DNA of 13,829 nucleotides from a virus, in the UHGV virus genome UHGV-0094592. The stretch is one strand, 5' to 3'. The notes beneath the pieces were generated by a model. It was not told where the DNA came from, made no database searches, and saw nothing but the letters and a program-made list of their open reading frames with translations. Shown in pieces: positions 2,421 to 13,829 of the stretch (position 1 is its first letter; every line of letters begins with the position of its first letter). The position numbers and the translations under genes are program-made.

Positions 2421-2453
2421 GTAAGCGTCAACGGAGCACCGTATTGACGCTTA
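2421..2453. repeat. IS66-type terminal inverted-repeat-like sequence (GTAAGCGTCAA...TTGACGCTTAT), internally palindromic
   Basis: Plus strand reads GTAAGCGTCAACGGAGCACCGTATTGACGCTTAT. IS66-family ends characteristically start GTAAGCG. It sits between the tnpC 3' fragment stop (2451-2453) and the tnpA start. Confidence 0.6.
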
Positions 2454-2636
2454 TTTATTGGTGAGTACTACGTTCCATGGCAGGAGTTCGCCAACTCGGT
2501 TGGAAGGCCATTCCGGCAGTACGCTCAGAATATGGCGCAGATACGCTTCCGGATCGATACCGTTCAGACGGCAGGTGCCGATCAGCCCGTACAGCAGTGC
2601 TCCACGCTCGCCGCCGTGATCGCTACCGAAGAACAC
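2451..2636 (-). pseudogene. Detached 3' fragment of an IS66 transposase (TnpC C-terminal 61 codons)
   Basis: Translation VFFGSDHGGERGALLYGLIGTCRLNGIDPEAYLRHILSVLPEWPSNRVGELLPWNVVLTNK is the C-terminal tail of IS66 TnpC. Its first residues (FFGSDHG) duplicate the last residues of the tnpC copy cut by the window edge. Homology stops abruptly near 2637. Confidence 0.85.
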
Positions 2637-2699
2637 GTAGATGATATGACCTTTATATACTCACTATAGCATTGGTGGGATATTCCAGAGGAGGTCATC

Positions 2700-2954
2700 A
2701 TGCATTCGGAAAATATTGCGGCTTACGTCGGGCTGGATGTGCATAAAGAAACGTTGGCGGTTGCTATTGCTGCACCTGAACGGCTTGGCGAAGTTCGTTA
2801 TTATGGTACGATTAACAACGAAGCCCAGGCTGTACGTCGATTATTTCAGAAATTGCAGGGACTTTACGGAAACATTCTTTCCTGCTATGAGGCTGGCCCC
2901 TGTGGTTTTGGGCTATATCATCAACTCACGATATTTATAATTAAATGCGCATAA
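2700..2954 (+). pseudogene. IS110-family transposase, N-terminal fragment (84 codons, truncated)
   Basis: MHSENIAAYVGLDVHKETLAVAIA...CYEAGPCGFGLYHQL carries the IS110-family N-terminal signatures (GxDxxK and CYEAxG). Strong RBS GGAGG 7 nt upstream. Full-length IS110-family transposases are several-fold longer as far as I recall, and this ORF ends after only 84 codons. Confidence 0.75.
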
Positions 2955-3005
2955 CTTATTGAATTTAACCAACAAACATCGCTGCAAATAACGTTAAAAA
3001 TCGCA

Positions 3006-3030
3006 AATTAACTACACCATTAACTACACC
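3006..3030. repeat. Island-boundary direct repeat, left copy (AATTAACTACACCATTAACTACACC; tandem 12-mer ATTAACTACACC x2); candidate att/arm site
   Basis: Perfect 25/25 identity to 13622-13646; imperfect homology continues about 45 bp to the right of both copies. Confidence 0.75.
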
Positions 3031-3521
3031 GTTCGGTGCACTGTATGCAACAATGCGGAACAAATAGACACAAGCGACGGGCTATACCGTTATCATTTTC
3101 CGGCTATCCGCCATGAAGCTGGTGGATGATCACGGATAAACCGTTATGGAAGTCCCCATATCGGCATCATGCCCACCAGCGAGATTAGTTATCTGGTTGC
3201 TGATGGGAGGCTGACGAACCTCGATGCTAGGGTGCGCAAAACTAGTGAGACCTTTTTTCTCTGCAACAGGCCCATAATTCGCGTTTTCTTTGTCTGCCGT
3301 AAGGTGGGGGATTTTTGGCGGATCCAGCAATGGCGCGGATTTTGTGATTTTTTATAGATAGACCTCATCTATCAATCCCGTGCACACCTTCCCAAAAAAA
3401 GTTTTCGAACCTGCGGCGATGTGAACAAGGGTAGGCGGGCGGTCCCATAAGCAATGAGGTGTAGGGATTTCTATCCCCCTGGGGGTATTAAACACCACCC
3501 GATTTAAATACCGTCTTTTTT

Positions 3522-3556
3522 GTCACTGTGTGTCACTCTCCGTCACGGTATGTCAC
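3522..3556. promoter_or_regulatory. Four helically phased GTCAC repeats (10-bp period); candidate protein-binding array
   Basis: GTCAC at 3522, 3532, 3542 and 3552, immediately downstream of the 93-aa gene stop (3563). Confidence 0.45.
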
Positions 3557-3562
3557 CACAAG

Positions 3563-3844
3563 TTAACGTCGTAACCGTTCCGGCTTCTTCCAGTGGTAAG
3601 TAATTTTTTCTTTCTCTTGGTACATCTGCACGCGGCGACGGTACGACAACATCTCCAGAACTCTGGCGCGTATGTTGCGCATATCCACGCCGTTAAGCTC
3701 GATACCGTCACGGCGCATCACCTCAGCAACAACACGCACATAATTTTCAGCGGTCACGCTGTCCGGCTGCGTGGCCTGTTCGTCAGCCTGCTGGCTGATT
3801 CCGGTAACGCGGCGGATTAATCGCAGTATTTCGGCTTCTGTCAT
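3563..3844 (-). CDS. Hypothetical protein (93 aa) downstream of TerS; possible packaging accessory factor
   Basis: ORF with RBS GGGGG 4 nt upstream of the ATG (3844); basic C-terminus. No recognisable family from sequence alone. Confidence 0.6.
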   Translation of the reverse strand: MTEAEILRLIRRVTGISQQADEQATQPDSVTAENYVRVVAEVMRRDGIELNGVDMRNIRARVLEMLSYRRRVQMYQEKEKITYHWKKPERLRR

Positions 3845-3917
3845 TGTGCCCCCATCGCTCTGATAGCCTGGTGTCGTCAGGTCCTTCCTGGAATTATGGC
3901 CCGTTACGGGGCGGCGG

Positions 3918-4460
3918 TTACTCGCCTTTGTTCTGTAGCAACTTCTCAGGCGCGCTTCCGGTAGTTTCCATCAGGTAATCAGCCAGTATCTGTGGCAGGT
4001 TTTCGTCAAGTCTTGCACATGCGTTACATGCTTTGGCTATTTCCCTTTTTAGTTCATCCAGCATATACGGCCTTATATCGGGAAAGCGCCTTTGCATTGT
4101 GAGCGGGAGGCTGTCCATGATTGATGAAATCTGACTCGCTAGTTTTGAAATCGCGTAGATGCAAAACTTTGTATCAATCACCTCGCCGCGTTCGCGCTCG
4201 TTTTTAAGTTCCTGCGCTTCCGCCTGTGCTGTCAGCAATCTGATTCTTACGCGTAAAAGTTCATCATCATCAATCTCGCCTTTGTCGTTTGTAAGCTGGT
4301 TAATTGCATTGTTAACCCTATTGTCTATCACGCTAGCAACATCATAAAACGCCTCACGGCCTTTACGCTCAACGGGAGTTACTCCCCACTTGTCGAACGC
4401 TGTCGCACTTACGCGGCAGCTTTGCGCCATAGTTTTTTTGTTCATCAGGTGCGATTTCAT
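3918..4460 (-). CDS. Terminase small subunit, phage lambda Nu1-like
   Basis: Translation (...RLLTAQAEAQELKNERERGEVIDTKFCIYAISKLASQISSIMDSLPLTMQRRFPD...) matches lambda gpNu1 as I recall it (RLTRAQADAQELKNARDSAEVVETAFCTFVLSRIAGEIASILDGLPLSVQRRFPE). ORF track start is GTG 4472; ATG at 4460 has RBS GGGGA and ATG at 4445 aligns with the Nu1 N-terminus (M..NKK). Confidence 0.85.
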   Translation of the reverse strand: MKSHLMNKKTMAQSCRVSATAFDKWGVTPVERKGREAFYDVASVIDNRVNNAINQLTNDKGEIDDDELLRVRIRLLTAQAEAQELKNERERGEVIDTKFCIYAISKLASQISSIMDSLPLTMQRRFPDIRPYMLDELKREIAKACNACARLDENLPQILADYLMETTGSAPEKLLQNKGE

Positions 4461-4472
4461 CAATATCCCCAC

Positions 4473-4637
4473 TTAGTTAAGGTTTCAGGTTGGTGTGTTG
4501 GTGTTATCTTTCCCTTTTTATTCATAGAGATAGAGCGAAAAACAAAACCACCACCACCAACCCGAAAAGGCTCATAAATAGCGAAAATCCGCAAGGTCGC
4601 CGCCCCGTAACGGGTCCATATGCCGGAAAGGACCCGT
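4473..4637 (-). other. Lambda-type cos site (cosQ-cosN-cosB) with exact cosN 12-mer GGGCGGCGACCT (minus strand, 4605..4594)
   Basis: Minus strand reads ...TTTACGGGTCCTTTCCGG-CATATGGACCCGTTACG-GGGCGGCGACCT-TGCGGATTTTCGCTATTTATGAGCCTTTTCGGG. Lambda right and left ends read ...TTTACGGGTCCTTTCCGGTGATCCGACAGGTTACG / GGGCGGCGACCTCGCGGGTTTTCGCTATTTATGAAAATTTTCCGG. It lies directly upstream of the Nu1-like gene, as in lambda. Confidence 0.85.
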
Positions 4638-4660
4638 AAAAAAAGCCGGATTTCTCCGGC
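4638..4660 (-). terminator. Rho-independent terminator after the capsid operon (stem GCCGGA/TCCGGC, 7-T run on minus strand)
   Basis: Hairpin 4645-4660 followed on the minus strand by TTTTTTT (4644..4638), 6 bp downstream of the 137-aa gene stop. Confidence 0.7.
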
Positions 4661-4666
4661 CTTATG

Positions 4667-5080
4667 TCAGATGGTTTTCAGTATGCGATCGACGTCGCCT
4701 TCATCGCCCTGGTTTCTGCCGTCGTATGCCATGCCGGGTGATACGGCTTTCGGGCTGTGCATGTCCATAAAGTTTTCAAAGGCTGCGGTAAGCTCCGGCG
4801 CAACCTTCGGGCGCTCCTGCTCTATGGTCATGTTCAGGATTTCACGAGCATTATCGACGCTAATACATGGCACGTTTGCCATTGCACGTAACAGCGGCTG
4901 ATAGTCGTTATGTTCATGAAGCGCCATAATCGCATCAGCGCGCGGCTTGTCCTGCTCTTCCAGTTTGTTGAGTTGATATACGGCCTCGTAGGTTGATAAA
5001 CCTCTGTCAGCCATTGCCCGCGCTTCTGCTTTAAATTTACTCGCCAGCGGTAGCGCCATGATGCTTTCATTCGTTGCCAT
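4667..5080 (-). CDS. Hypothetical capsid-module protein (137 aa), acidic; possible scaffold or size-determination factor
   Basis: ORF with RBS AGGGGAA 3 nt upstream of ATG 5080; sits between the gpD-like gene and the terminator/cos. No confident family assignment. Confidence 0.6.
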   Translation of the reverse strand: MATNESIMALPLASKFKAEARAMADRGLSTYEAVYQLNKLEEQDKPRADAIMALHEHNDYQPLLRAMANVPCISVDNAREILNMTIEQERPKVAPELTAAFENFMDMHSPKAVSPGMAYDGRNQGDEGDVDRILKTI

Positions 5081-5092
5081 CGTTTCCCCTGC

Positions 5093-5428
5093 TTATCGCG
5101 CCAGCGGCTGAACGGATACGCCAGAACCCGCAAAGGCGGCGCATTTTTTCGCGTCAGTGTCGGCGCTCTCAGGCCAGTTTACGGCGGCGATATTAAATAT
5201 CCCCGTCTTGTAACACTGTGCTGATTTCTGCTTTGACGTGTCCACGGGGTACGAGGTCAGATAAACAGCCTTCCCAGATTCCTGACCATCCCACGGCTTA
5301 AACTCGCCATTGTCCGCCAGCATCAGCGGGGTAAATTCCTGAATAACGCCAGCATCAGCGGCAAAATGTACCAGCGTCGTGGATACCTGCTGACTGCCTG
5401 CAAATAACTCAATGTATGGAGTGTCCAT
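5093..5428 (-). CDS. Head decoration protein, lambda gpD-like
   Basis: ...FTPLMLADNGEFKPWDGQ...YKTGIFNIAAVNWPESADTDAKKCAAFAGSGVSV versus recalled lambda gpD ...MTPLMLDTSSRKLVAWDGT...[44 protein letters not shown] 4 nt upstream of the ATG. Confidence 0.8.
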   Translation of the reverse strand: MDTPYIELFAGSQQVSTTLVHFAADAGVIQEFTPLMLADNGEFKPWDGQESGKAVYLTSYPVDTSKQKSAQCYKTGIFNIAAVNWPESADTDAKKCAAFAGSGVSVQPLAR

Positions 5429-5439
5429 AGAATCCCCCG

Positions 5440-6495
5440 TTAAGCAATTTTGACGGTAACAAATTTGCGAATATCTGCCGGAACCGGCTGCGGTGCGCTG
5501 TGCGTCTGCACGTACTCAATCGCCGGATCGCCGTCCTCAATCCAGTTTTTCGGGTAGTACATGTTTTGCGTTGCGCCTGTTCTTACCGCTTCCTGATCCA
5601 TAATCGCACCATAGGCCACCAGCCCTTTGTTGTTGGTGTTGCCCAGGACCAGCAAATCAGGATCAAGGAAATATTTTTCTGTGCCGTCGCTGTCAGTGTA
5701 TTTGCCGGAATAGACGATAAGGGCCAGATCACCAAGATAGCCTTTAAAGCTCACCACTTCGCCCAGGTTTTTACATGCCAGCTCTGCGGCGGATTCTGAA
5801 CCACGGGAGAGATCGTACAGTTCACGGAATTTTTTAAAGCTGCGTAACATGCGCCATACATCAACGCCCATAATCATGACGTTTGCGGGGCAACCTGCCT
5901 GATCTGCGTATAGCTCAATGTCATAGATTGGGTCGTGTATGTCTTTGTCCTGCTCTGACCATTTTTTACCGTCGGCCTGCTCTATGATGTTTTTTTCCGG
6001 TATCTTCCAGTCGATTTCATAGCGCTCTATGCCTTCGCCCTCAATGATGTTTTTTCCGGTCGTTATCGCATTCACCGCCAGCCATTCCACGCGCGCTTTA
6101 ATGGCGTTTATCTGGCGGCGCATGTTGCCAGTAATCAGGCGCATACGGCGGTAGGTAGGGTCGTTAAGCTGTGCCGGATCTTCTCCAGCCATGCGCATTA
6201 TTGTTTTTAATGGATCGATTTCGTGTTTTGGCTTCATGTAGCCAGGGCGAATAATGCTGGTTTCGTACCCTTTATCGCGCTGAACCTGGCTACCAACCAT
6301 AGGCGAACAAAACGCCGACATAGTGACTTCTTCAATATCCAGGTTATCTAACATGATGTCCTGTGTGTTGAATGTCGCCACGTTCGGGAAAAACAGCGCG
6401 GTAAACAGCGGACTAAATTTAAATTCCGCAATATCCTCGCGATTCAGGTACGCGAAAAGCTGGTGTGTGTTAAGTGCCATTGCTTTGACTGCCAT
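5440..6495 (-). CDS. Major capsid protein, lambda gpE-like (351 aa)
   Basis: Conserved blocks EFKFSPLF, RPGYMKPKHEIDP, EDPAQLNDPTYRRMRLI, WSEQDKDIHDP, VSFKGYLGDLALIVYSGKYTD, LLVLGNTNNKGLVAYGAIMD and YPKNWIEDGDPAIE align with recalled lambda gpE (KFKFDPLF, TPGYVKPKHEVNP, EDPQNLADPAYRRRRII, WSKRDKSTYDP, VSYKGMYGDVAIVVYSGQYVE, MVLGNTQARGLRTYGCIQD, YPKNWVTTGDPAREF). [11 protein letters not shown]; start overlaps the upstream stop (TAATG). Confidence 0.9.
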   Translation of the reverse strand: MAVKAMALNTHQLFAYLNREDIAEFKFSPLFTALFFPNVATFNTQDIMLDNLDIEEVTMSAFCSPMVGSQVQRDKGYETSIIRPGYMKPKHEIDPLKTIMRMAGEDPAQLNDPTYRRMRLITGNMRRQINAIKARVEWLAVNAITTGKNIIEGEGIERYEIDWKIPEKNIIEQADGKKWSEQDKDIHDPIYDIELYADQAGCPANVMIMGVDVWRMLRSFKKFRELYDLSRGSESAAELACKNLGEVVSFKGYLGDLALIVYSGKYTDSDGTEKYFLDPDLLVLGNTNNKGLVAYGAIMDQEAVRTGATQNMYYPKNWIEDGDPAIEYVQTHSAPQPVPADIRKFVTVKIA

Positions 6496-6701
6496 TATTC
6501 ACCCCCATGAGTCTGATTTATGCCCAGCGCCGCGCGTAAATAGGAGCGTACCTGCCAGCCTGTTGACGGCTCAACCATCGCCAGCGGATCAAGTCCTGCC
6601 GCAATGCCTGCTTTTACGTTCTGCTGGTGGCGTTCCTTGAGCGCCTTCACGATGTCGGGGCTTATGTACACCGAAACACCGCCTTTTTTCTCTTCAGCCA
6701 T
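6495..6701 (-). CDS. Hypothetical small protein (68 aa), first gene of the capsid operon, translationally coupled to the major capsid gene
   Basis: RBS AAGAGGAA 7 nt upstream of ATG 6701; its stop overlaps the capsid ATG. Confidence 0.6.
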   Translation of the reverse strand: MAEEKKGGVSVYISPDIVKALKERHQQNVKAGIAAGLDPLAMVEPSTGWQVRSYLRAALGINQTHGGE

Positions 6702-6729
6702 AGTAAGAAATTCCTCTTTGACTTAAAAA

Positions 6730-6786
6730 ATTATAACTGGATGTTCATCCAGCTCTGATTATAATCAGGATTGCATTTTGTGCAAT
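6730..6786 (-). promoter_or_regulatory. Candidate capsid-operon promoter (perfect -10 TATAAT on minus strand, weak -35) with three adjacent palindromes upstream
   Basis: Minus-strand TATAAT at 6735..6730. Palindromes TGGATGttCATCCA (6738-6751), CTGATTATAATCAG (6755-6768) and ATTGCAttttgTGCAAT (6770-6786) lie immediately upstream in minus sense. Confidence 0.5.
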
Positions 6787-6866
6787 GATATTGAGTTGTG
6801 TTGCAAATTATGAAATGATGATCCCGCTCATGTGTGTCAGTGCACCAAAAAGCCTCATATGCAAAA

Positions 6867-6903
6867 GCCCGATAAGCCACCTCTGACCTTATCGGGCTTT
6901 TTT
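6867..6903 (+). terminator. Strong hairpin with a T-run on both strands (plus-strand T6); bidirectional terminator-like element
   Basis: Stem GCCCGATAAG/CTTATCGGGC (10 bp, 11-nt loop) followed by TTTTTT on plus and TTTT on minus. Confidence 0.55.
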
Positions 6904-7078
6904 ATCTGCCTGCAAAGATGTCGAACGAAAATTAACCACAACCATCATCTTTTTTGCATCAAAACAATTAAAAACAATAAATTACGCTCATGATGATGAT
7001 GACGATAAAATCACAAAAATGCGCTTTTTTCCGCGCCTCCCGCCCCGTGTTCAGGCCCACCCCGCCAGGAGGACCCGT

Positions 7079-7100
7079 AAAAAAGCCGGATTGCTCCGGC
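7079..7100 (-). terminator. Rho-independent terminator after ssb; sequence paralog of the cosQ-side terminator at 4638-4660
   Basis: Stem GCCGGA/TCCGGC with loop, followed on minus strand by TTTTTT; 17 bp downstream of the ssb stop. About 35 bp are near-identical to 4631-4660. Confidence 0.7.
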
Positions 7101-7116
7101 TTCTGTCACTCGTCGC

Positions 7117-7539
7117 TTAAAACGGTATGTTATCCCCGTACGGATCATCATTCCCCGCCTGTTGTTTTGCCCTGTTCAGCGCGTCAGTAGCCTGGCCCTG
7201 TTGACCTTTTTTGCCGCCCAGTCGCGCCGTTCGCGCACTGATTACACTGTCTGCGATAACCTGCCAGCCCTGCCGCGTTTCTCCGTTCTGCCCAGTCCAC
7301 TGGCTGATCTGCATGTTACCCGCCACGCTCAGGAGTTCACCCTTGCGGTGCCTTTCCAGTGCTTCGGCCTGTCTGCCAAATGCCAGGACGGATAACCACA
7401 TCGTCGCCGTTCCGTCATCTGCCTGGCTGCACGGAAGGGGGACCGCCATACGCGCCAGCGTCATCGGTGTGCCCTTGCTGGTCTGTTTTACCTGCGGGTC
7501 GTCCACCAGCCGCCCGTAAGCTGCTATCTGTGCTGTCAT
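7117..7539 (-). CDS. ssb: Single-stranded DNA-binding protein (SSB-like OB-fold with C-terminal ...DNIPF tail)
   Basis: 140 aa. N-terminal OB-fold pattern resembles E. coli SSB; the protein ends ...NDDPYGDNIPF, an acidic IPF tail like the DDDIPF tail of E. coli SSB. Start overlaps the upstream gene stop (ATGA). Confidence 0.8.
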   Translation of the reverse strand: MTAQIAAYGRLVDDPQVKQTSKGTPMTLARMAVPLPCSQADDGTATMWLSVLAFGRQAEALERHRKGELLSVAGNMQISQWTGQNGETRQGWQVIADSVISARTARLGGKKGQQGQATDALNRAKQQAGNDDPYGDNIPF

Positions 7540-7787
7540 GATTCCACCTCTCCGGTTTTAACGTTGATGGTTGTTACCTGTTCCGCTTCGGCAATCTCCC
7601 GCTCTGTCAGCGTGGCAAAATTTGCCGCCGTCGTGGTCATGAATGCGCTTATCAGTTCGGGATGTGCTTTCGCGTATCCTTCCCCCGCGTGGCGGTCTAT
7701 CGTTCTGATTGCCACCTTTAAAGCGTGCTCTGTCATGTCTAACGCTTTATATTTTGGCGCTGTCTTATCTCTGGTTTTTCTGGTCAT
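7536..7787 (-). CDS. Hypothetical protein (83 aa), translationally coupled to ssb
   Basis: ORF immediately downstream of the iteron region; stop overlaps the ssb start. Confidence 0.55.
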   Translation of the reverse strand: MTRKTRDKTAPKYKALDMTEHALKVAIRTIDRHAGEGYAKAHPELISAFMTTTAANFATLTEREIAEAEQVTTINVKTGEVES

Positions 7788-7796
7788 TCCTCACTG

Positions 7797-7990
7797 CTCC
7801 CCACTTTTACTACCCACTTTTTGAAATTACCCAACGTCTCCCCACTTCTTTTTTTTGTGATTCTAACGTGATGTTTTTCAATGTGTTTTTTATTCCCCAC
7901 TTTTTGGGGTATATACAGGTGGGAAAGTGGGGAATCACGTTTCAATTTTGTTAAATTCCCCACACTCCCCACTTTTACTACCCACTTTTT
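7797..7990. repeat. Putative origin of replication: iteron array (CCCCACTTTT family) flanking an AT-rich core
   Basis: 23-bp direct repeat CTCCCCACTTTTACTACCCACTTTT at 7797-7821 and 7965-7989. Additional TCCCCACTT copies at 7837-7848, 7893-7905, 7957-7966 and an inverted copy at 7924-7934. Located directly 3' of the helicase gene. Confidence 0.7.
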
Positions 7991-9404
7991 ACAGTGGGCG
8001 CACGTCATCACCGTCAATAGCAATAACGCCATCACCTTCCAGCTTGTACAGCCAGCGCCGGAAGTGTTTCATCTCATACCCCAGCTTTTTCATATCATCG
8101 CGCAACAACGGAATAGTGCATTTATCTCCGCGCTGTGTGCGTGAACGGATACAGCCCCATAGCGCGGCATGATTCTCCGTCTTGTTCCCGGCTTCCTCGA
8201 TGCGCTCCAGTTCAACGGGTGGGCGCGGCTTATCCACAACAACCAGCGACGTGATTAACTCCCCGTCAGTGTCGGTAAAAAGCTCCACCACACGTAAATC
8301 GTATGCGGCCTCTTTCAGTTCCTCCGCGTCCTTCATTTTTGTGCAGGAGATAACCAGGGCTTCACTGTCTGCACCTTCACGGCGAATACGGTATTCAGCG
8401 TCCAGAGATGCACGAAATGCACTGGAACCACGCGCCCCCTTTGTTTCATCCTTGCCGGAATGGTGAACCACCAGCACCGTGGCCCCTGTGCGGCGTTTCA
8501 GTTCGTCACATCCACGGATAAACGCCCCCATATCCCGCGCGTCATTTTCATCATTACCGCCAAAGCAACGCGCCAGCGTATCAAGAATAATCATGCGTAC
8601 CGGTTTACCCGTTTCCCGTTCAACCTGGCGGGAAGCGATGACCATTTCATCAACATCAAGCGGGACTGCCGGAAAAATCGGGCGGTTTACCAGGTACAGA
8701 TTTTCCACCCGTTCATCATTAACGATTTCCCATGCCTTGATACGGCGGGGGACACCAATGCCACCTTCACCGACAACATACATCACCGAACCATGCGCCA
8801 CCCTGCGGCCTCCCCAGTGACGGCCAGTGGCAACATGACACGCCCAGGAACACGCGAGGAACGATTTATAGGAACCGCTCGCGCCGTATGTGCTGCACAA
8901 TGAATTAGCCGGAATCACGCCCTTAACGACATAATCAAGCTGTGTGTCGTACCCTGCAGATCCAATGCTCATTGGTAGCGTGGTTTTTCGCTGGCTGTAT
9001 TGCTCGTCAGTAAGTATTTCCCCGCGCTCTGCCTGTTCGCGGATCCGTTGCAGGTAGTCGTGCCAGTTCTCCAGCTTCTGGCTGTGCATTCCATCAGGGT
9101 AATAATTCGCATCCCGTACACCTGCCGCCGCCAGCTTTTGCCCGATAGCATTAATATTTGACGGCTTGATGTGGCCTGCCTTGTACAGCCGGACACAATA
9201 GCGACCATCGTCGATAATTTTCAGGTCTGCCAGTTCGTCAAGCTGGCTGTCTCCCAGCCATACAGGCGGGACGTTATCACCAGCAAGTCGCCCGTCCTGT
9301 TCCTGCCACTGTTTCGCGTGCGCCCAGGCATCACTACCCGCAAAAATAATGACTTCGGTCATTTTGTCGTGTGGCTGTTTTTTTAAGTTCGGTGCCAGTT
9401 TCAT
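7989..9404 (-). CDS. Replication helicase, RepA/AAA_25-like P-loop NTPase with an N-terminal domain of unknown function
   Basis: 471 aa. P-loop-like YGASGSYKSF, Walker B-like RMIILDTLARCFGG and the VLVVHHSGKD motif typical of RepA/AAA_25-type helicases. RBS AGGGG. Start overlaps the upstream stop (ATGA). Confidence 0.8.
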   Translation of the reverse strand: MKLAPNLKKQPHDKMTEVIIFAGSDAWAHAKQWQEQDGRLAGDNVPPVWLGDSQLDELADLKIIDDGRYCVRLYKAGHIKPSNINAIGQKLAAAGVRDANYYPDGMHSQKLENWHDYLQRIREQAERGEILTDEQYSQRKTTLPMSIGSAGYDTQLDYVVKGVIPANSLCSTYGASGSYKSFLACSWACHVATGRHWGGRRVAHGSVMYVVGEGGIGVPRRIKAWEIVNDERVENLYLVNRPIFPAVPLDVDEMVIASRQVERETGKPVRMIILDTLARCFGGNDENDARDMGAFIRGCDELKRRTGATVLVVHHSGKDETKGARGSSAFRASLDAEYRIRREGADSEALVISCTKMKDAEELKEAAYDLRVVELFTDTDGELITSLVVVDKPRPPVELERIEEAGNKTENHAALWGCIRSRTQRGDKCTIPLLRDDMKKLGYEMKHFRRWLYKLEGDGVIAIDGDDVRPL

Positions 9405-9700
9405 TTTTTGCCCCTGAATGCGTTAATCATGTTTTTCATTTTCTGAATATTTGCCCGTGCCTTTGCGTTGCTGGTGGGCTGTTTGCGTGGTGTGGCCTGT
9501 ATCAGTGAAAAATCACGCCGGAACTGATAAGCAGGCATCACGCAGTCATAGCCGTACCCATCACGGCGGTAAGTAACGCACCGCCCCGCCACGCTTTTAA
9601 TCGTTACCGTGCCACCGTAGTTATCCCGGAAAATATCGCCGGGGCGGATTTCAGGCCGAGGGAGACCACTGGCAGTAAAGCCAGAATTTTTCTGTTTCAT
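9401..9700 (-). CDS. Hypothetical protein (99 aa), basic
   Basis: ORF with GGAG upstream; operon member immediately 5' of the helicase gene. Confidence 0.55.
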   Translation of the reverse strand: MKQKNSGFTASGLPRPEIRPGDIFRDNYGGTVTIKSVAGRCVTYRRDGYGYDCVMPAYQFRRDFSLIQATPRKQPTSNAKARANIQKMKNMINAFRGKK

Positions 9701-9706
9701 GTTTTT

Positions 9707-9925
9707 TTACTCCAGAGGCAGATTTTTAGCGGCGAGTTCAATATCAGATGTCAGAGAAACCTGTGTATTTGCCAGGTCTAACAACAAAGAAATAAGAATT
9801 TCCTCTCTGCTATCGGATTCATCGGTGCTAAGGCTGTTCATCCACATATTGACGACTTCCCTGATTTTTTTCGCAGAGTGCAGGGCTTCAAATGCCAGGT
9901 CTTCAATATCATGTTTATTTCGCAT
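9707..9925 (-). CDS. Hypothetical protein (72 aa from internal ATG; ORF track lists 9707..9991)
   Basis: ATG at 9925 has RBS GGGGG and avoids overlap with the upstream gene; the longer track ORF would overlap it by 77 nt. Confidence 0.5.
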   Translation of the reverse strand: MRNKHDIEDLAFEALHSAKKIREVVNMWMNSLSTDESDSREEILISLLLDLANTQVSLTSDIELAAKNLPLE

Positions 9926-10127
9926 AATCGCCCCCGCGTAACTGGTCTGCACTAACACCCGATTTAGTGAGCATTTCAGAAAATCCCGCAAGAGTGCTGA
10001 TAAATTCGTTTTCCATTAAACGGCACTGGCATTTAACCCGGCCTTTTTCCAGATACACCAGTACGCGCCCCGTATAATCTGACGGCACATTCAGCACTAC
10101 AGATAAGTGCGCTTCATTATTATTCAT
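9915..10127 (-). CDS. Hypothetical protein (70 aa)
   Basis: Strong RBS GGAGGTG 7 nt upstream of ATG 10127. Confidence 0.55.
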   Translation of the reverse strand: MNNNEAHLSVVLNVPSDYTGRVLVYLEKGRVKCQCRLMENEFISTLAGFSEMLTKSGVSADQLRGGDYAK

Positions 10128-10356
10128 GGCTCACCACCTCCATATCAGCCATGATAATTTTGCTGGCCTCATTCAGTGCCATATCAGCACTAAGTTGCAT
10201 TACAGCCAGTGAATGAGGAACGAAAGCCCCGGCATATTCTGTTTCACTGGTAGCGTGCTTATGCGCCCTGTCCGCGATAACAGAAATATCAATCAGCGCA
10301 TCAATCAGTGTTTTGATTGCTTCGGCGGCTGCGTCCGGACGGGTGTTATTGCACAT
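10120..10356 (-). CDS. Hypothetical protein (78 aa)
   Basis: RBS GGGGG upstream of ATG 10356; 8-nt overlap with the downstream gene. Confidence 0.55.
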   Translation of the reverse strand: MCNNTRPDAAAEAIKTLIDALIDISVIADRAHKHATSETEYAGAFVPHSLAVMQLSADMALNEASKIIMADMEVVSHE

Positions 10357-10552
10357 GGTGCACCCCCTGACGAATACGGGCGGCGAATACCATCACGCAG
10401 CCAGCCGGTGATTGCTGACGGGCTTCCTGTTCGCTGGTGGCCTCAATGGTAATCACGCGCGGTTGTGCCGTACTCAGGGCGATAAAACGCCAGATGTATT
10501 TATTCAGGTTGTGCGAGTCCCGCCCTTGCGGGTGTATGGTATGATTTCTCAT
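10346..10552 (-). CDS. Hypothetical protein (68 aa), first gene of the replication-module operon (ORF track lists a TTG-start version 10346..10642)
   Basis: ATG at 10552 is preceded by GAGG. The longer version would extend into the operator/promoter region. Confidence 0.5.
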   Translation of the reverse strand: MRNHTIHPQGRDSHNLNKYIWRFIALSTAQPRVITIEATSEQEARQQSPAGCVMVFAARIRQGVHHVQ

Positions 10553-10571
10553 AGCAGCCTCGATAATCTTG

Positions 10572-11762
10572 CTATCGTTGGTGGTTAGACGCCCCGTATG
10601 TGTTTCCGGCACTGCGGGGCGTTGCTCTTTGTATTTCAACAATTCTTTTGGTGTGTTTCATGTTATGAGCGCATGAAACACACGTCAAGGCTTTTTGTAT
10701 TTCTTTTTTTGTGTATACTGAAACACACCGATGATTAGGAGTTTCAGAAATGGCAACGGCTAACAAAAACGCAAAATCACAACTGACAACTGTCAGAGTC
10801 CCACTAGATGTTATGCAAGGGATGGAATCCGTTAAGCTGGACGGCGAAAGCAATGCCGGATTTATCGTAACCGCCATGCGCGGAGAAATAGCCCGCCGCC
10901 AAGCAGAAGGCAGCGGAGAAAATCCCCTTGTGTCGTCACTGGATGCCCTGGCTAAGGTCGAACAAATCGGCATCAAAGCAGCGGAAGAAATCGGGCAGCT
11001 TGTCACCGTTGCACGCGAAGAACTCCAGCGTCGCAAGACCAAAGAACCAGAGTAATCACCATCAGCGCCGTGGTGTAAGGTATTACGGCGCATTGCTATG
11101 CAGGACAACACAATGACCGATAAAGAATTGACCAAAACATTATCACCGGCACGGAAAAGACGGCGCAGAAAGATAGAGCATGAATCAGAAAGATTCGCGC
11201 CATGTGCTTTTGCTCTTGAGAAATTCCTTAAAGAGCACAGGAAAAAGCTCTCGTTGCAAACCTTGGAACGAACCAAATCTGACTGATCACATTGCCCACC
11301 AGCCGCAAATGTGGCATTGTTGGTGATGCTCATGCGTTGGGGATAACGTGTAGCTTGTGTCGAGGGGCCACCGTAGCGGGTGGCCTTTGTTTTGCCTGTT
11401 ATCCGGCAATTGTGGCGCTTCGCCACACGGTTGATATAATCCCACTGCTCAGATTCATTTTTTGCGCAGTAGGTTAATTGTTCACAAAGGCGCTCCGGCA
11501 ACGGGGCGCTTTTTGTTTTTATTAGTTTGTAGAAACCTGACTCAGAGATAATGCTCATATTCTGATTGCCGTCAGGGGTGTAAGTTAAATTTACTCCCTT
11601 TTTATCATCAAACATCTGCAACGCTCTGGCGTTAACAATATTGGTTTCACTCCCGCCAGTAAGGCCGGAAATAACCGGAATAATTTCGGCAAAATTTTGC
11701 AGATTCTGTTTTTCAGGACGAACGAAGCCCCGCCCTTGTTCGGGAGAATATCCAGTATTCAT
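10572..11762 (-). CDS. Long open frame; only the N-terminal ~100 codons (from ATG 11762) look protein-like, with a possible Bro-N/KilA-N-like motif. The rest is probably non-coding or a pseudogene remnant
   Basis: N-terminus contains IISESGFYKLIKTKS, resembling a Bro-N-type motif as I recall it. The C-terminal two thirds are Ser/Cys/Arg-rich and antisense to two plus-strand ORFs with good RBSs, and span two plus-oriented terminators. Confidence 0.3.
   Translation of the reverse strand: MNTGYSPEQGRGFVRPEKQNLQNFAEIIPVISGLTGGSETNIVNARALQMFDDKKGVNLTYTPDGNQNMSIISESGFYKLIKTKSAPLPERLCEQLTYCAKNESEQWDYINRVAKRHNCRITGKTKATRYGGPSTQATRYPQRMSITNNATFAAGGQCDQSDLVRSKVCNESFFLCSLRNFSRAKAHGANLSDSCSIFLRRLFRAGDNVLVNSLSVIVLSCIAMRRNTLHHGADGDYSGSLVLRRWSSSRATVTSCPISSAALMPICSTLARASSDDTRGFSPLPSAWRRAISPRMAVTINPALLSPSSLTDSIPCITSSGTLTVVSCDFAFLLAVAISETPNHRCVSVYTKKEIQKALTCVSCAHNMKHTKRIVEIQRATPRSAGNTYGASNHQR
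10651..10688 (-). promoter_or_regulatory. Sigma70-like promoter for the minus-strand operon (TTGACG-17-TAACAT) fully overlapped by a 12-bp inverted-repeat operator
   Basis: Minus strand -35 TTGACG (10688..10683) and -10 TAACAT (10665..10660). Operator GTGTGTTTCATG-9bp-CATGAAACACAC spans 10651-10683. Related GAAACACA sites lie at 10720-10728 and in the hairpin loop at 10596-10627. Confidence 0.6.
10750..11055 (+). CDS. Hypothetical regulator-like protein (101 aa), divergently transcribed from the island operons; candidate repressor
   Basis: Strong RBS TAGGAG 8 nt upstream. Plausible -10 TATACT (10714-10719) with an operator half-site at the predicted start. Balanced composition; N-terminal beta-strand plus helix pattern (TTVRVPLDVMQGMESVKL) reminiscent of ribbon-helix-helix proteins. 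Confidence 0.6.
   Translation: MATANKNAKSQLTTVRVPLDVMQGMESVKLDGESNAGFIVTAMRGEIARRQAEGSGENPLVSSLDALAKVEQIGIKAAEEIGQLVTVAREELQRRKTKEPE
11113..11286 (+). CDS. Hypothetical small basic protein (57 aa; ORF track lists 11098..11286)
   Basis: ATG at 11113 has AGGA 7 nt upstream; very basic (RKRRRRK) N-terminal segment. Confidence 0.45.
   Translation: MTDKELTKTLSPARKRRRRKIEHESERFAPCAFALEKFLKEHRKKLSLQTLERTKSD
11366..11393 (+). terminator. Rho-independent terminator (stem GGCCACC/GGTGGCC, then TTTGTTTT) for the plus-strand unit
   Basis: Perfect 7-bp stem with 6-nt loop and a T-rich tail on the plus strand. Confidence 0.6.
11490..11520 (+). terminator. Second plus-strand rho-independent terminator (stem GCGCTCCG/CGGGGCGC, GCAA tetraloop, TTTTTGTTTTT)
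   Basis: 8-bp stem with one G-U pair, GNRA-type loop, and 11-nt T-rich tail. Confidence 0.65.
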
Positions 11763-11814
11763 GGTTAGATCTCTGTATTAGTGGATGGGTGGCGGCTGTG
11801 TGCCGCCAGCCTGA

Positions 11815-12003
11815 TTAGTGAACTGCCTCGCAGCTTTCCTTCCATGCCAGAACTTCGGATAAAGACCAGCCAACGGAACGACCGCCGAGCTTACGCCGTG
11901 ATGGGAATTGTCCGGTTTTTTCCAGGCGGTACCGACATGAACGGCTCAGGCCTGTAAGTTGCTGACATTCTTTTTCACGTATAAAGCGATCTGTGCTTAA
12001 CAC
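11815..12003 (-). CDS. alpA: AlpA-family (prophage CP4-57-type) transcriptional regulator, 62 aa from GTG start
   Basis: Motif ...CQQLTGLSRSCRYRLEKTGQFPSRRKLGGRSVGWSLSEVLAWKESC is the AlpA/Vis-type HTH signature. GTG at 12003 is preceded by AGGGGGA. ORF track lists a longer 11815..12171 version. Confidence 0.8.
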   Translation of the reverse strand: MLSTDRFIREKECQQLTGLSRSCRYRLEKTGQFPSRRKLGGRSVGWSLSEVLAWKESCEAVH

Positions 12004-12288
12004 AATTCCCCCTTTGATATTTCTTAAAGAGTTATTTGGTGTCCTATTGTGTTGTGGTGCGTCGGATTGTGTCAGGGTGTTTATGGAATGGCAAACACTG
12101 GCGGCGGTCATTTTACAGAAGTGTGGTAATGAGAATAAAAACTCTTTTAATTCATTGTGGTGCAAAGGCATAAAATTCTGTTTTTACGCCTTTTTTACAT
12201 GTTTTTAAGAGTGATTCGCCAATGTACAAAAAGCCAGTAAAACGACTGAAAATCAACTTTTTAGGGTGTCAGTCAGATGTTAATCAAG

Positions 12289-12346
12289 TTTGTTCCAGAT
12301 TGTTCGCCGTTGTTCGTCGTGGTGTCTCGTTGTTTCACGTTGTGTC
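12289..12346. promoter_or_regulatory. Cluster of TTGTTCG-like direct repeats between int and alpA; candidate regulator binding sites
   Basis: TGTTCC 12291, TTGTTCG 12300, TTGTTCG 12310 (10-bp spacing), TTGTTTC 12330, TTGTGTC 12340. Confidence 0.4.
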
Positions 12347-12370
12347 AGTTCTAAAAAATCGCAAAAAAAA

Positions 12371-13621
12371 TTATATTTCTCTGGCTATTGGCAGTGTGGT
12401 TACGTTTTTGTGAGTACCCGCCAGTATCTCTAACCGCTCTGTCCACATGTCCAGCGCATTACGTTTCGCATCGAGATAACGGGAGTGGTTATAGACTCGC
12501 TGCATCCCTGGCATCTGGTGAGCGGTGAGTTGTTCGACAATATGCGGATCCACGCCTAAATCGTTCAGCATCGTGGTAAACGTGCGCCGTATATCGTGTA
12601 GTGACCAGTGCGGATGGTTTAATTTTTTGTGCATGAATCTGCCGTATTGCGACACACTGGCTTCCTGTTTCAGTTCCCCGAGTAATAGCCCTGTGTGTCT
12701 GTTCTGCTCCACCAGCTGCGTGACGAACGGTAAAATGCTTTCCGGTATTGGCCTGAATATGGCGACCTTCGTTTTGCTGTGCTCTTTCGGTACTGTCCAG
12801 AGCATTTCCTTAAAATCCCACTCCCTGATCTCCGATAATCTCAGTTCTCCGGTTCGGCAGCCGAACACAATCAGGAGGCGGATTAGTGCGCTGTAGTAGG
12901 GCGGGAATATTTTTTTATCCAGCGCCTGTAATAATTCGCCAAGTTCTTTGTTGCTCAGCACGCGTTCGCTTATGCCTGGTTTTTTGCCAACGTCCACCAC
13001 GTTAAGATCATCCAGAACGTTACTGACTGCGTAGCGACGTTTACGGCAGAACTTAAGCGCCTGTTTACACGCCTGCATCATGTGACCAGACGTTACAGGG
13101 GATTTTTTGCGTATCCGGTCAAAACAGGCCAGCCAGTGACGTAACTCGCATTTATCCAGTGGCATATTGCCAATATGCTGTATGACGTGATTATTCAGGC
13201 GGCTTTTCAGGCATACGTAATCGACACGGTTTTCCTTTACGTGCATTTCCAGCCAGTAGCTGATCGCATCACCCACCGTTACCGGCTTTAGTGCTTCCTG
13301 TATGGAGTAATTAAGCTCATGGCGTGGATTTTTTCCTTCTGCCAGCCATGCGCGACACTGTGCCGCTTTTTCCCTGGCTGCTTTCAGGCTCAGATCAGGA
13401 TAATTTCCCAGCTTCAGGCGTTCCGGTGATACCTGGCGTCCAGCTCCTGCTCTGTAGGTGAAATACCAGGTTAATAAGCCGCTGGTGGAATGCCTGACGC
13501 TCAGGTTTCCACCGTCATTAAGAAATGTGGTTTTTGGGGCTGGTGTGCCGTTGATTTTTCTTAGCTGTGTATCGCTCAGTTTGTTAAGTGCTCTGCTCAT
13601 AATTTTGAATCCGGTCATCAC
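12371..13621 (-). CDS. int: Tyrosine recombinase / integrase, P4-type
   Basis: 416-codon ORF. N-terminal region LSDTQLRKI...YPDLSLKAAREKAAQ resembles P4-family integrase N-termini. C-terminal catalytic motifs include HDIRRTF (HxxR) and a tyrosine within RVYNHSRYLD. ORF-track start is GTG 13621; in-frame ATGs at 13618 and 13600 are alternative starts. Confidence 0.9.
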   Translation of the reverse strand: MMTGFKIMSRALNKLSDTQLRKINGTPAPKTTFLNDGGNLSVRHSTSGLLTWYFTYRAGAGRQVSPERLKLGNYPDLSLKAAREKAAQCRAWLAEGKNPRHELNYSIQEALKPVTVGDAISYWLEMHVKENRVDYVCLKSRLNNHVIQHIGNMPLDKCELRHWLACFDRIRKKSPVTSGHMMQACKQALKFCRKRRYAVSNVLDDLNVVDVGKKPGISERVLSNKELGELLQALDKKIFPPYYSALIRLLIVFGCRTGELRLSEIREWDFKEMLWTVPKEHSKTKVAIFRPIPESILPFVTQLVEQNRHTGLLLGELKQEASVSQYGRFMHKKLNHPHWSLHDIRRTFTTMLNDLGVDPHIVEQLTAHQMPGMQRVYNHSRYLDAKRNALDMWTERLEILAGTHKNVTTLPIAREI

Positions 13622-13646
13622 AATTAACTACACCATTAACTACACC
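13622..13646. repeat. Island-boundary direct repeat, right copy (AATTAACTACACCATTAACTACACC), immediately upstream of int
   Basis: Identical to 3006-3030. Confidence 0.75.
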
Positions 13647-13829
13647 GATCATTGCACAAGGGGGTACAACGTGGAACAAGTTGGAACAAGAAAAATTGCA
13701 ATGAGCTTAAAAATCAAAAACATAATGAACAACGTGGCACATTATGAAACAGCAAAAAACACTAATTTATAAAATCACAGCGATGAATATAAAATGCCAG
13801 GTTATTGCCCCTTCCCGCATACCAAAATC

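Follow-up and report, generated by a model that had tools for sequence, protein, structure and literature searches.

Doubled 12-mers in both attachment arms of the PICI EcCIDI14 as candidate arm-type integrase sites

The arm-type sites P1, P2 and P'1-P'3 of lambda are short repeats which are read by the N-terminal domain of the integrase. In KplE1, the arm sites of IntS overlap the intS promoter, and integrase and directionality factor exert negative autoregulation (PMC2951348). Directionality-factor sites are described in PMC7498355 as typically co-oriented direct repeats about one helical turn apart. For helper-embedded PICIs, a "doubled motif" tgTGTATTGCantgTGTATTGCa was reported in the reconstructed attP, with two co-oriented copies 81 ± 2 bp upstream and 132 ± 2 bp downstream of the attP centre (PMC10111431; NAR Genom Bioinform 2023). 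Integrase arm domains or AlpA were proposed there as binders, an unknown protein was also left open, and the motif was stated as not found in other PICIs. EcCIDI14 itself is listed by Fillol-Salom et al. 2018 (PMC6092414, Table S1) for clone D i14 with 10.6 kb, an IS110 transposase as "att gene" and the 26-mer CGGTGTAGTTAATGGTGTAGTTAATT as "att site core"; PMC10111431 also places EcCIDi14 in an IS110 transposase gene. Thus, neither the island nor its unusual location nor the doubled-motif architecture as such is new to the literature.

The window analyzed here, a stretch of 13,829 nucleotides, carries this published PICI. Positions 2421-13829 are 100% identical to E. coli clone D i14 and to seven other complete genomes. 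The ISEc45::PICI joint of the window is shared by eight complete genomes; in each of them (8/8), identity to the window ends at 2420/2421, where they have an IS630-family element; hence, the window stems from a different, unsampled genome. Positions 1-2640 are an IS66-family element, about 96% identical to known copies, so that mobile DNA is nested here: IS66 beside ISEc45, and ISEc45 split by the PICI.

According to annotation and Pfam, the annotated island genes (int, alpA, a RepA-type helicase, ssb, capsid, head-decoration and small terminase) all lie on the minus strand. The structural genes encode a lambda E-type capsid protein, a head-decoration protein and a Nu1-type small terminase, and tail or lysis genes are absent from the annotation and the Pfam matches, as is the rule for the EcCICFT073 type. 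The island is collinear with EcCICFT073 and has the further traits of this Gram-negative PICI type, namely int/alpA/replication/lambda-type capsid-terS-cos modules in one direction, a length of about 10-12 kb and a dedicated att site. Two cos-like lambda-type sequences (..GGTCCTT.CGG..CCCGTTACGGGGCGGCG..) at 3880-3916 (+) and 4598-4634 (+) flank the small-terminase gene (3918-4460) in inverted orientation, and the second matches the published "CFT073 cos.1". Directly downstream of the RepA-type helicase gene (7989-9404, minus strand), the iteron-like direct repeats at 7797-7991 comprise two copies of CTCCCCACTTTTACTACCCACTTTTT and three of a 19-mer, the latter spaced by about 84 nt, and an inverted repeat lies between them; this is probably the replication origin of the island. 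A 396-aa ORF (10572-11762, minus strand) has no Pfam match and is missing from the RefSeq annotation of clone D i14, in which the YlcI/YnfO gene (10750-11055) overlaps it on the opposite strand; the corresponding position of a related island (L003) is annotated with a long "Icd-like" protein.

The original prediction described a 25-mer occurring twice and built from a tandem 12-mer. This repeat is confirmed as real and non-random: AATTAACTACACCATTAACTACACC is present exactly twice on the plus strand (3006-3030 and 13622-13646), each copy consists of two exact tandem copies of the 12-mer ATTAACTACACC, and 200 dinucleotide-preserving shuffles gave 0 matches, none being expected by chance. Also correct were the roughly 45 bp of imperfect homology to the right of both copies (3006-3074 versus 13622-13690, 69 nt, 77% identity) and the lack of tRNA-like sequence at the junctions, as a tRNA/tmRNA scan of the whole window found none; an Rfam scan of the whole window returned no family. 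That the right copy abuts the int start is true for the longest ORF (GTG 13621) but not for the start conserved in relatives (MSRALNKLSD...) and used by RefSeq, ATG 13600, which is 21 nt off. The features relevant for attachment are the following.

2700-2932, plus strand: 5' part of an IS110-family transposase gene, that of ISEc45, which the island splits (annotated so by RefSeq in the identical clone D i14 stretch)
2929-2944, plus strand: left junction; TCAC at 2929-2932 is the only sequence common to both window junctions, and the island-type core runs on as TCACGATATTTATAAT
2952-2964, minus strand: IHF-consensus-like site with 1 mismatch between core and left 25-mer, suggestive
3006-3030, plus strand: far-arm doubled 12-mer (ATTAACTACACC twice), candidate for an arm-type site of the integrase, separated from the left junction by 73 nt
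3031-3074, plus strand: extended homology beside the far pair, TTGTTCC-type repeats about 10 nt apart on the int-sense strand, candidate sites for a second protein
11815-12003, minus strand: alpA, Phage_AlpA family regulator/excisionase-like (annotation; Pfam PF05930, E = 2.7e-18)
12371-13600, minus strand: int, tyrosine integrase (Pfam PF13356, E = 2.8e-18; PF00589, E = 7.4e-17)
13622-13646, plus strand: int-proximal doubled 12-mer, separated by 128 nt from the right junction and located upstream of the int ATG at a distance of 21 nt; candidate for an arm-type site, possibly an operator of int as well
13647-13774, plus strand: rest of the int-proximal arm, with a phased TGT/TTGTTCC array on the int-sense strand
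13712-13724: IHF-like site with 1 mismatch between core and right 25-mer
13775-13778, plus strand: TCAC of the right junction; ISEc45 resumes at 13779
13779-13829, plus strand: continuation of the ISEc45 transposase gene (annotation; rejoined gene)

From sequence comparison, we consider it probable (about 0.7) that EcCIDI14 was put by its own tyrosine integrase into a secondary site in ISEc45 and that the 25-mers are arm-type sites for this integrase instead of the crossover. The layout of related islands bears on this directly. We fetched six published PICIs, of which EcCICFT073, EcCI042, EcCIIHE3034 and EcCI224 are of the EcCICFT073 type; these four, together with the window island and its smrA-abgR twin, form a set of six reference islands with five different cores. 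All six have a tandem 12-mer pair in both arms, inside the published cores. The gap from the far pair to the core is 66-74 nt, that from the core to the int-proximal pair 125-128 nt, and that from the proximal pair to the int ATG 22-36 nt. The repeats lie in both attP arms, their sequence is unrelated to the core, and the layout is constant over five cores. The integrase has an N-terminal arm-DNA-binding domain (Arm-DNA-bind_3, PF13356, residues 8-95) separate from the Phage_integrase catalytic domain. For EcCICFT073, the authors put excision and circularisation to an experimental test (PMC6092414, Fig. S4).

A wider set was drawn from 160 metagenome and IMG/VR loci plus ten earlier loci, many of them near-duplicates. 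The tandem 12-mer was found within 110 nt upstream of the int start in 100 of the 101 loci with enough upstream sequence, and the far copies recovered in this set, 9.5-11.2 kb away, were all co-oriented (27/27; inverted copies 0). Searched with the integrase protein, species-representative genomes yielded a single locus, a degraded one from Shigella (L004), which has the proximal pair and no far pair and is thus uninformative. In one case, L124, attP is seen directly: this circular 11,098-bp IMG/VR contig with a 119-nt terminal overlap is a 042-type island and reads pair, 73 nt, core ATAACAGCA, 127 nt, pair, int. Similar joints are present in L041 and L162. Neither the 170 loci nor IMG/VR contain TTAATTATAAATATCGTGATTTTATAAATTAGTG, the joint predicted for attP of the DI14 type; hence, attP is documented for sibling islands only.

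Copy number of the arm repeat varies between islands, as an IHE3034-type island on a metagenome contig (L067) has three tandem 12-mers upstream of int, not two. RM13514-type islands, which have a distant Int, share no arm repeat at k = 9. A degenerate motif scan of IMG/VR returned GGTGTAGTAACT arrays, which were discarded as coding TTPV repeats in unrelated large proteins. The island adjoining tRNA-Pro in E. coli ATCC 25922 (L006), with an integrase of a distant lineage, has a doubled motif of its own, TTT(T/G)AGTTATACG twice, in both arms:

1501-1560 and 12758-12783 of L006: ATCC 25922 doubled motif, plus two inverted copies in the int-proximal arm

The doublet is listed as "att site core" in the PMC6092414 table. 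Reconstruction of the ATCC 25922-type empty site gave a predicted joint present in no genome; the listed tandem-repeat "core" is suspect.

Helper-embedded PICIs and EcCIDI14 both have tandem doublets of a motif of about 12 nt starting with TGTA, with two co-oriented copies per attP, and both combine a P4-like Int with AlpA. The spacing is 81 ± 2 and 132 ± 2 bp from the centre in the former and corresponds to gaps of 73 and 128 nt in the latter. The motif itself differs (tgTGTATTGCantgTGTATTGCa versus TGTAGTTAAT), and the doubled layout, confined to helper-embedded PICIs in PMC10111431, was found here throughout the EcCICFT073-type PICIs. As with lambda and other heterobivalent integrases (cf. 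PMC4880445), short repeats lie in both attP arms, outside of and unrelated to the core, candidate sites for a bending protein lie between arm sites and core, and the N-terminal domain is separate. Unlike that of lambda, the N-domain of EcCIDI14 Int is the P4-like Pfam Arm-DNA-bind_3, and the layout, known from sequence alone, is simpler and symmetric with one tandem doublet per arm, all co-oriented. The KplE1 IntS/TorI system resembles EcCIDI14 in that int points away from the adjacent junction, so that the region upstream of int coincides in part with the att arm and its arm-type sites; unlike EcCIDI14, KplE1 targets a tRNA gene, argW, and its sites were mapped experimentally.

Int N-domain and 12-mers: The 12-mers of both arms change with a hairpin in the Int N-domain. 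SVRHST(S/N)GLL, with which rare I/T variants group, goes with GGTGTAGT(T/C)AAT, SVKYLTSGKL with GGTGTAGT(C/T)A(C/T)T, and EIKHSKGGKL with TGTGTGGTCAGT (class form TGTGTGGTCA(G/T)T). The match between 12-mer class and N-domain is perfect in about 40 islands, which fall into only three main, int-linked classes, and the mosaic L135/L190 is discordant. In a natural swap (L020/L218), the C-terminal 300 residues of Int are 99% identical to DI14 Int, the N-domain is 042-like, and 042-class pairs are present in both arms, while the core-proximal far-arm sequence is DI14-like. The core of these islands, AATAGCGGAT, is homologous to the DI14 island core AATATCGTGA and is perhaps the homologous site in another species. 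Together with their relatives L022, L024, L097 and L098, L020/L218 represent an island of about 14.9 kb with a DI14-like replication half and integrase catalytic part and an unrelated right half. The mosaic L135 and L190 (IMGVR_UViG_2859821903_000003), which sits at the CFT073 site and is collinear with that locus, combines an N-domain and a proximal pair of the 042 class with a CFT073-class far pair. For this sole discordant case, either the matching of N-domain and 12-mer is not strict or the island is impaired. As Int, the proximal arm and the N-domain are physically adjacent, part of the co-variation is simple co-inheritance.

A reading by AlpA, as excisionase/regulator, or by another island or host protein instead of the Int arm domain is unlikely. 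PMC10111431 left AlpA open for the analogous motif, co-oriented repeats about one helical turn apart are typical of directionality-factor sites according to PMC7498355, and a regulator could act from the proximal copy, given its place directly upstream of int. The 12-mer class, however, is independent of the AlpA type. IHE3034 AlpA is 58% identical to DI14 AlpA and the 12-mer is the same; 042 AlpA is 90% identical and the 12-mer is different; IHE3034 and 224 have near-identical AlpA and different 12-mers. It is a separate motif, TTGTTCC versus TTGTTCG, that does track the AlpA type, and four half-sites over both arms suit an integrase tetramer. These comparisons point to the N-terminal Arm-DNA-binding domain of Int, rather than AlpA, as the likely reader of the doubled 12-mers; with three main classes, near-duplicates, linkage of int and proximal arm, and L135/L190, it is likely and not proven.

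TTGTTC(C/G) arrays: Read on the int-sense strand, the extra homology of about 45 nt beside the 25-mers is made up of TTGTTCC-type motifs. The attP reconstruction of 356 nt has 20 TGT on this strand and one on the other. Nine TGT neighbour distances are exactly 10 nt, and only about 0.15% of random placements attain the phasing seen at period 11. TTGTTCC/TTGTTTC accompanies one AlpA type and TTGTTCG the other, with two classes only. Such an array would fit a directionality factor on co-oriented repeats one helical turn apart, and a second protein, such as AlpA, probably binds there. Over the whole window, the number of IHF-consensus matches is not above chance. About as likely as not, in our judgement, is the proposal that the doubled 12-mer and the Int N-domain would form a swappable cassette of Gram-negative PICIs generally, independent of core specificity, in which position 11 of the 12-mer would be read by the beta-hairpin (RHSTSGLL versus KYLTSGKL) and the second phased TTGTTC(C/G) array by AlpA.

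Far copy: It is very unlikely that only the int-proximal copy functions, as an int operator or promoter element, and that the far copy is left over from an old duplication. The position of the proximal copy 21 nt from the int ATG and the discordant far and proximal pairs of the mosaic L135/L190 would agree with this reading, but the far copy keeps its sequence, its orientation and the 66-74 nt distance to the core where the surrounding far arm has diverged, and in L020/L218, far and proximal copies change class together.

Junctions: In many other E. coli, the interval from smrA to abgR is occupied by an island with an identical Int protein (WP_001352457.1). The match of this island to the window spans 2926-13778 and runs past both 25-mers. 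The junctions at smrA-abgR (L002) are cattTCACGATATTtATAATtaaatg and aaaaTCACGATATTaATAATgtaac, and those in the window are aacTCACGATATTTATAAT (2929-2944) and aaaaTCAC|agcgatg (13775-13778). The island proper therefore comprises 2933-13778, i.e., 10,846 bp between the junctions, and the 25-mers lie 73 nt (left) and 128 nt (right) inside. With the junctions from the window and L002, we joined the island flanks in silico and matched the resulting empty sites to genomes. The smrA-abgR empty site (..CATTCACGATATTAATAATGTAAC..) was found at 100% identity, with 5,308 genomes covering at least 80% of it, and intact ISEc45, e.g., in Nissle 1917, matches the rejoined gene (..ATCAACTCACAGCGATGAATATAAAATGCC..) at 100% identity. 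Both empty sites are present in many genomes at this identity, and neither contains a copy of the 12-mer.

That the 25- or 26-mers are the att core, i.e., direct repeats made by recombination which bound the island, is hardly tenable on these data. This was the heading of the original prediction and is the entry in PMC6092414 Table S1, where the listed 26-mer is the reverse complement of the 25-mer plus one base; the 25-mers are also the longest exact direct repeat near both island ends. Island-type sequence, however, continues for 73 and 128 nt beyond them up to the TCAC joint. The repeats are internal at smrA-abgR and in EcCICFT073, 042, IHE3034 and 224, whose cores are all different, and in the circular L124, the pairs flank the core instead of forming it. 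The 25-mers are thus not at the boundary of island and flank and have no copy in the empty target. The original prediction had itself named empty-site and attP sequences with the crossover elsewhere as its refutation, and both empty sites put the crossover outside the repeats. Its fallback fared better: position, orientation, conservation and co-variation fit arm-type sites, but the core is not outside the window, as both junctions lie within. Correct, too, was its suggestion of a non-tRNA target.

Target: The usual target of Int, TCACGATATTAATAAT, lies in the smrA-abgR intergenic region, with mcaS, an sRNA gene (Rfam RF00115), 75 bp downstream of it, and the site in the window is an IS110-family gene; neither is the 3' end of a tRNA or tmRNA gene as expected of a P4-type integrase. 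The core derived here is the reverse complement of ACATTATTAATATCGTGA, the att core listed for EcCIEC2733.1 with the site lysR-smrA (PMC6092414, Table S1). The ISEc45 insertion is a secondary site with only 4 bp (TCAC) in common with the island core and was found in 8 of 5,426 complete genomes and in two metagenomic/viral contigs (L079 and L093). An IS110-family recombinase as the inserter of the island was rejected, as the transposase ORF is interrupted midway and both joints belong to the att core of the island itself. At 14400-14585 of L002, the usual integration site is just beyond a CRP-like TGTGA..TCACA-type sequence, cgTGAaatctgTCACt, near mcaS, and integration at smrA-abgR may alter the upstream context of mcaS without touching the gene.

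Replication iterons or packaging (cos/pac) signals, conceivable as short tandem repeats in a replicating and packaged element, can practically be dismissed for the 25-mers, since the repeats at 7797-7991 beside the RepA helicase gene and the cos-like sequences at 3880-3916 and 4598-4634 are better candidates, and it is the att core, rather than rep or terS, from which the 25-mers keep a fixed distance.

With the 25-mers as arm-type integrase sites, the excised circle would have the order far pair, 73 nt, core, 128 nt, pair, 21 nt and int, with a predicted attP joint ...AAAATCAC/GATATTTATAAT... and the 25-mers about 225 bp apart. The two doubled 12-mers would offer four co-oriented half-sites, most likely bound by the N-terminal Arm-DNA-binding domains of an Int tetramer, while the catalytic domains would hold the core, in the manner of lambda-type heterobivalent integrases. 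Since the proximal pair separates the int ATG from the remainder of the arm, Int bound to this pair probably also represses int, in analogy to KplE1 IntS. A scan found no consensus sigma-70 promoter for int; with no promoter predicted, the suggestion of int autoregulation draws solely on the KplE1 IntS precedent (PMC2951348).

Beyond what has been published, our analysis adds the true junctions of EcCIDI14 and a correction of its tabulated att core: the 26-mer given as core in PMC6092414 Table S1 is here assigned to the arm repeat, and the TCAC joint is 73 and 128 nt further out. It extends the doubled-motif layout from helper-embedded to classical EcCICFT073-type PICIs and provides comparative evidence for the Int N-domain over AlpA as the reader of the motif. 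The general understanding of tyrosine integrases is unchanged by the findings on EcCIDI14. An integrase-mediated secondary-site insertion into an insertion sequence, with a common core of only 4 bp, is documented. Other tandem-repeat "cores" in PMC6092414 Table S1 are at least suspect, which matters for the delimitation of PICIs, for the design of excision PCRs and for PICI-based delivery vectors.
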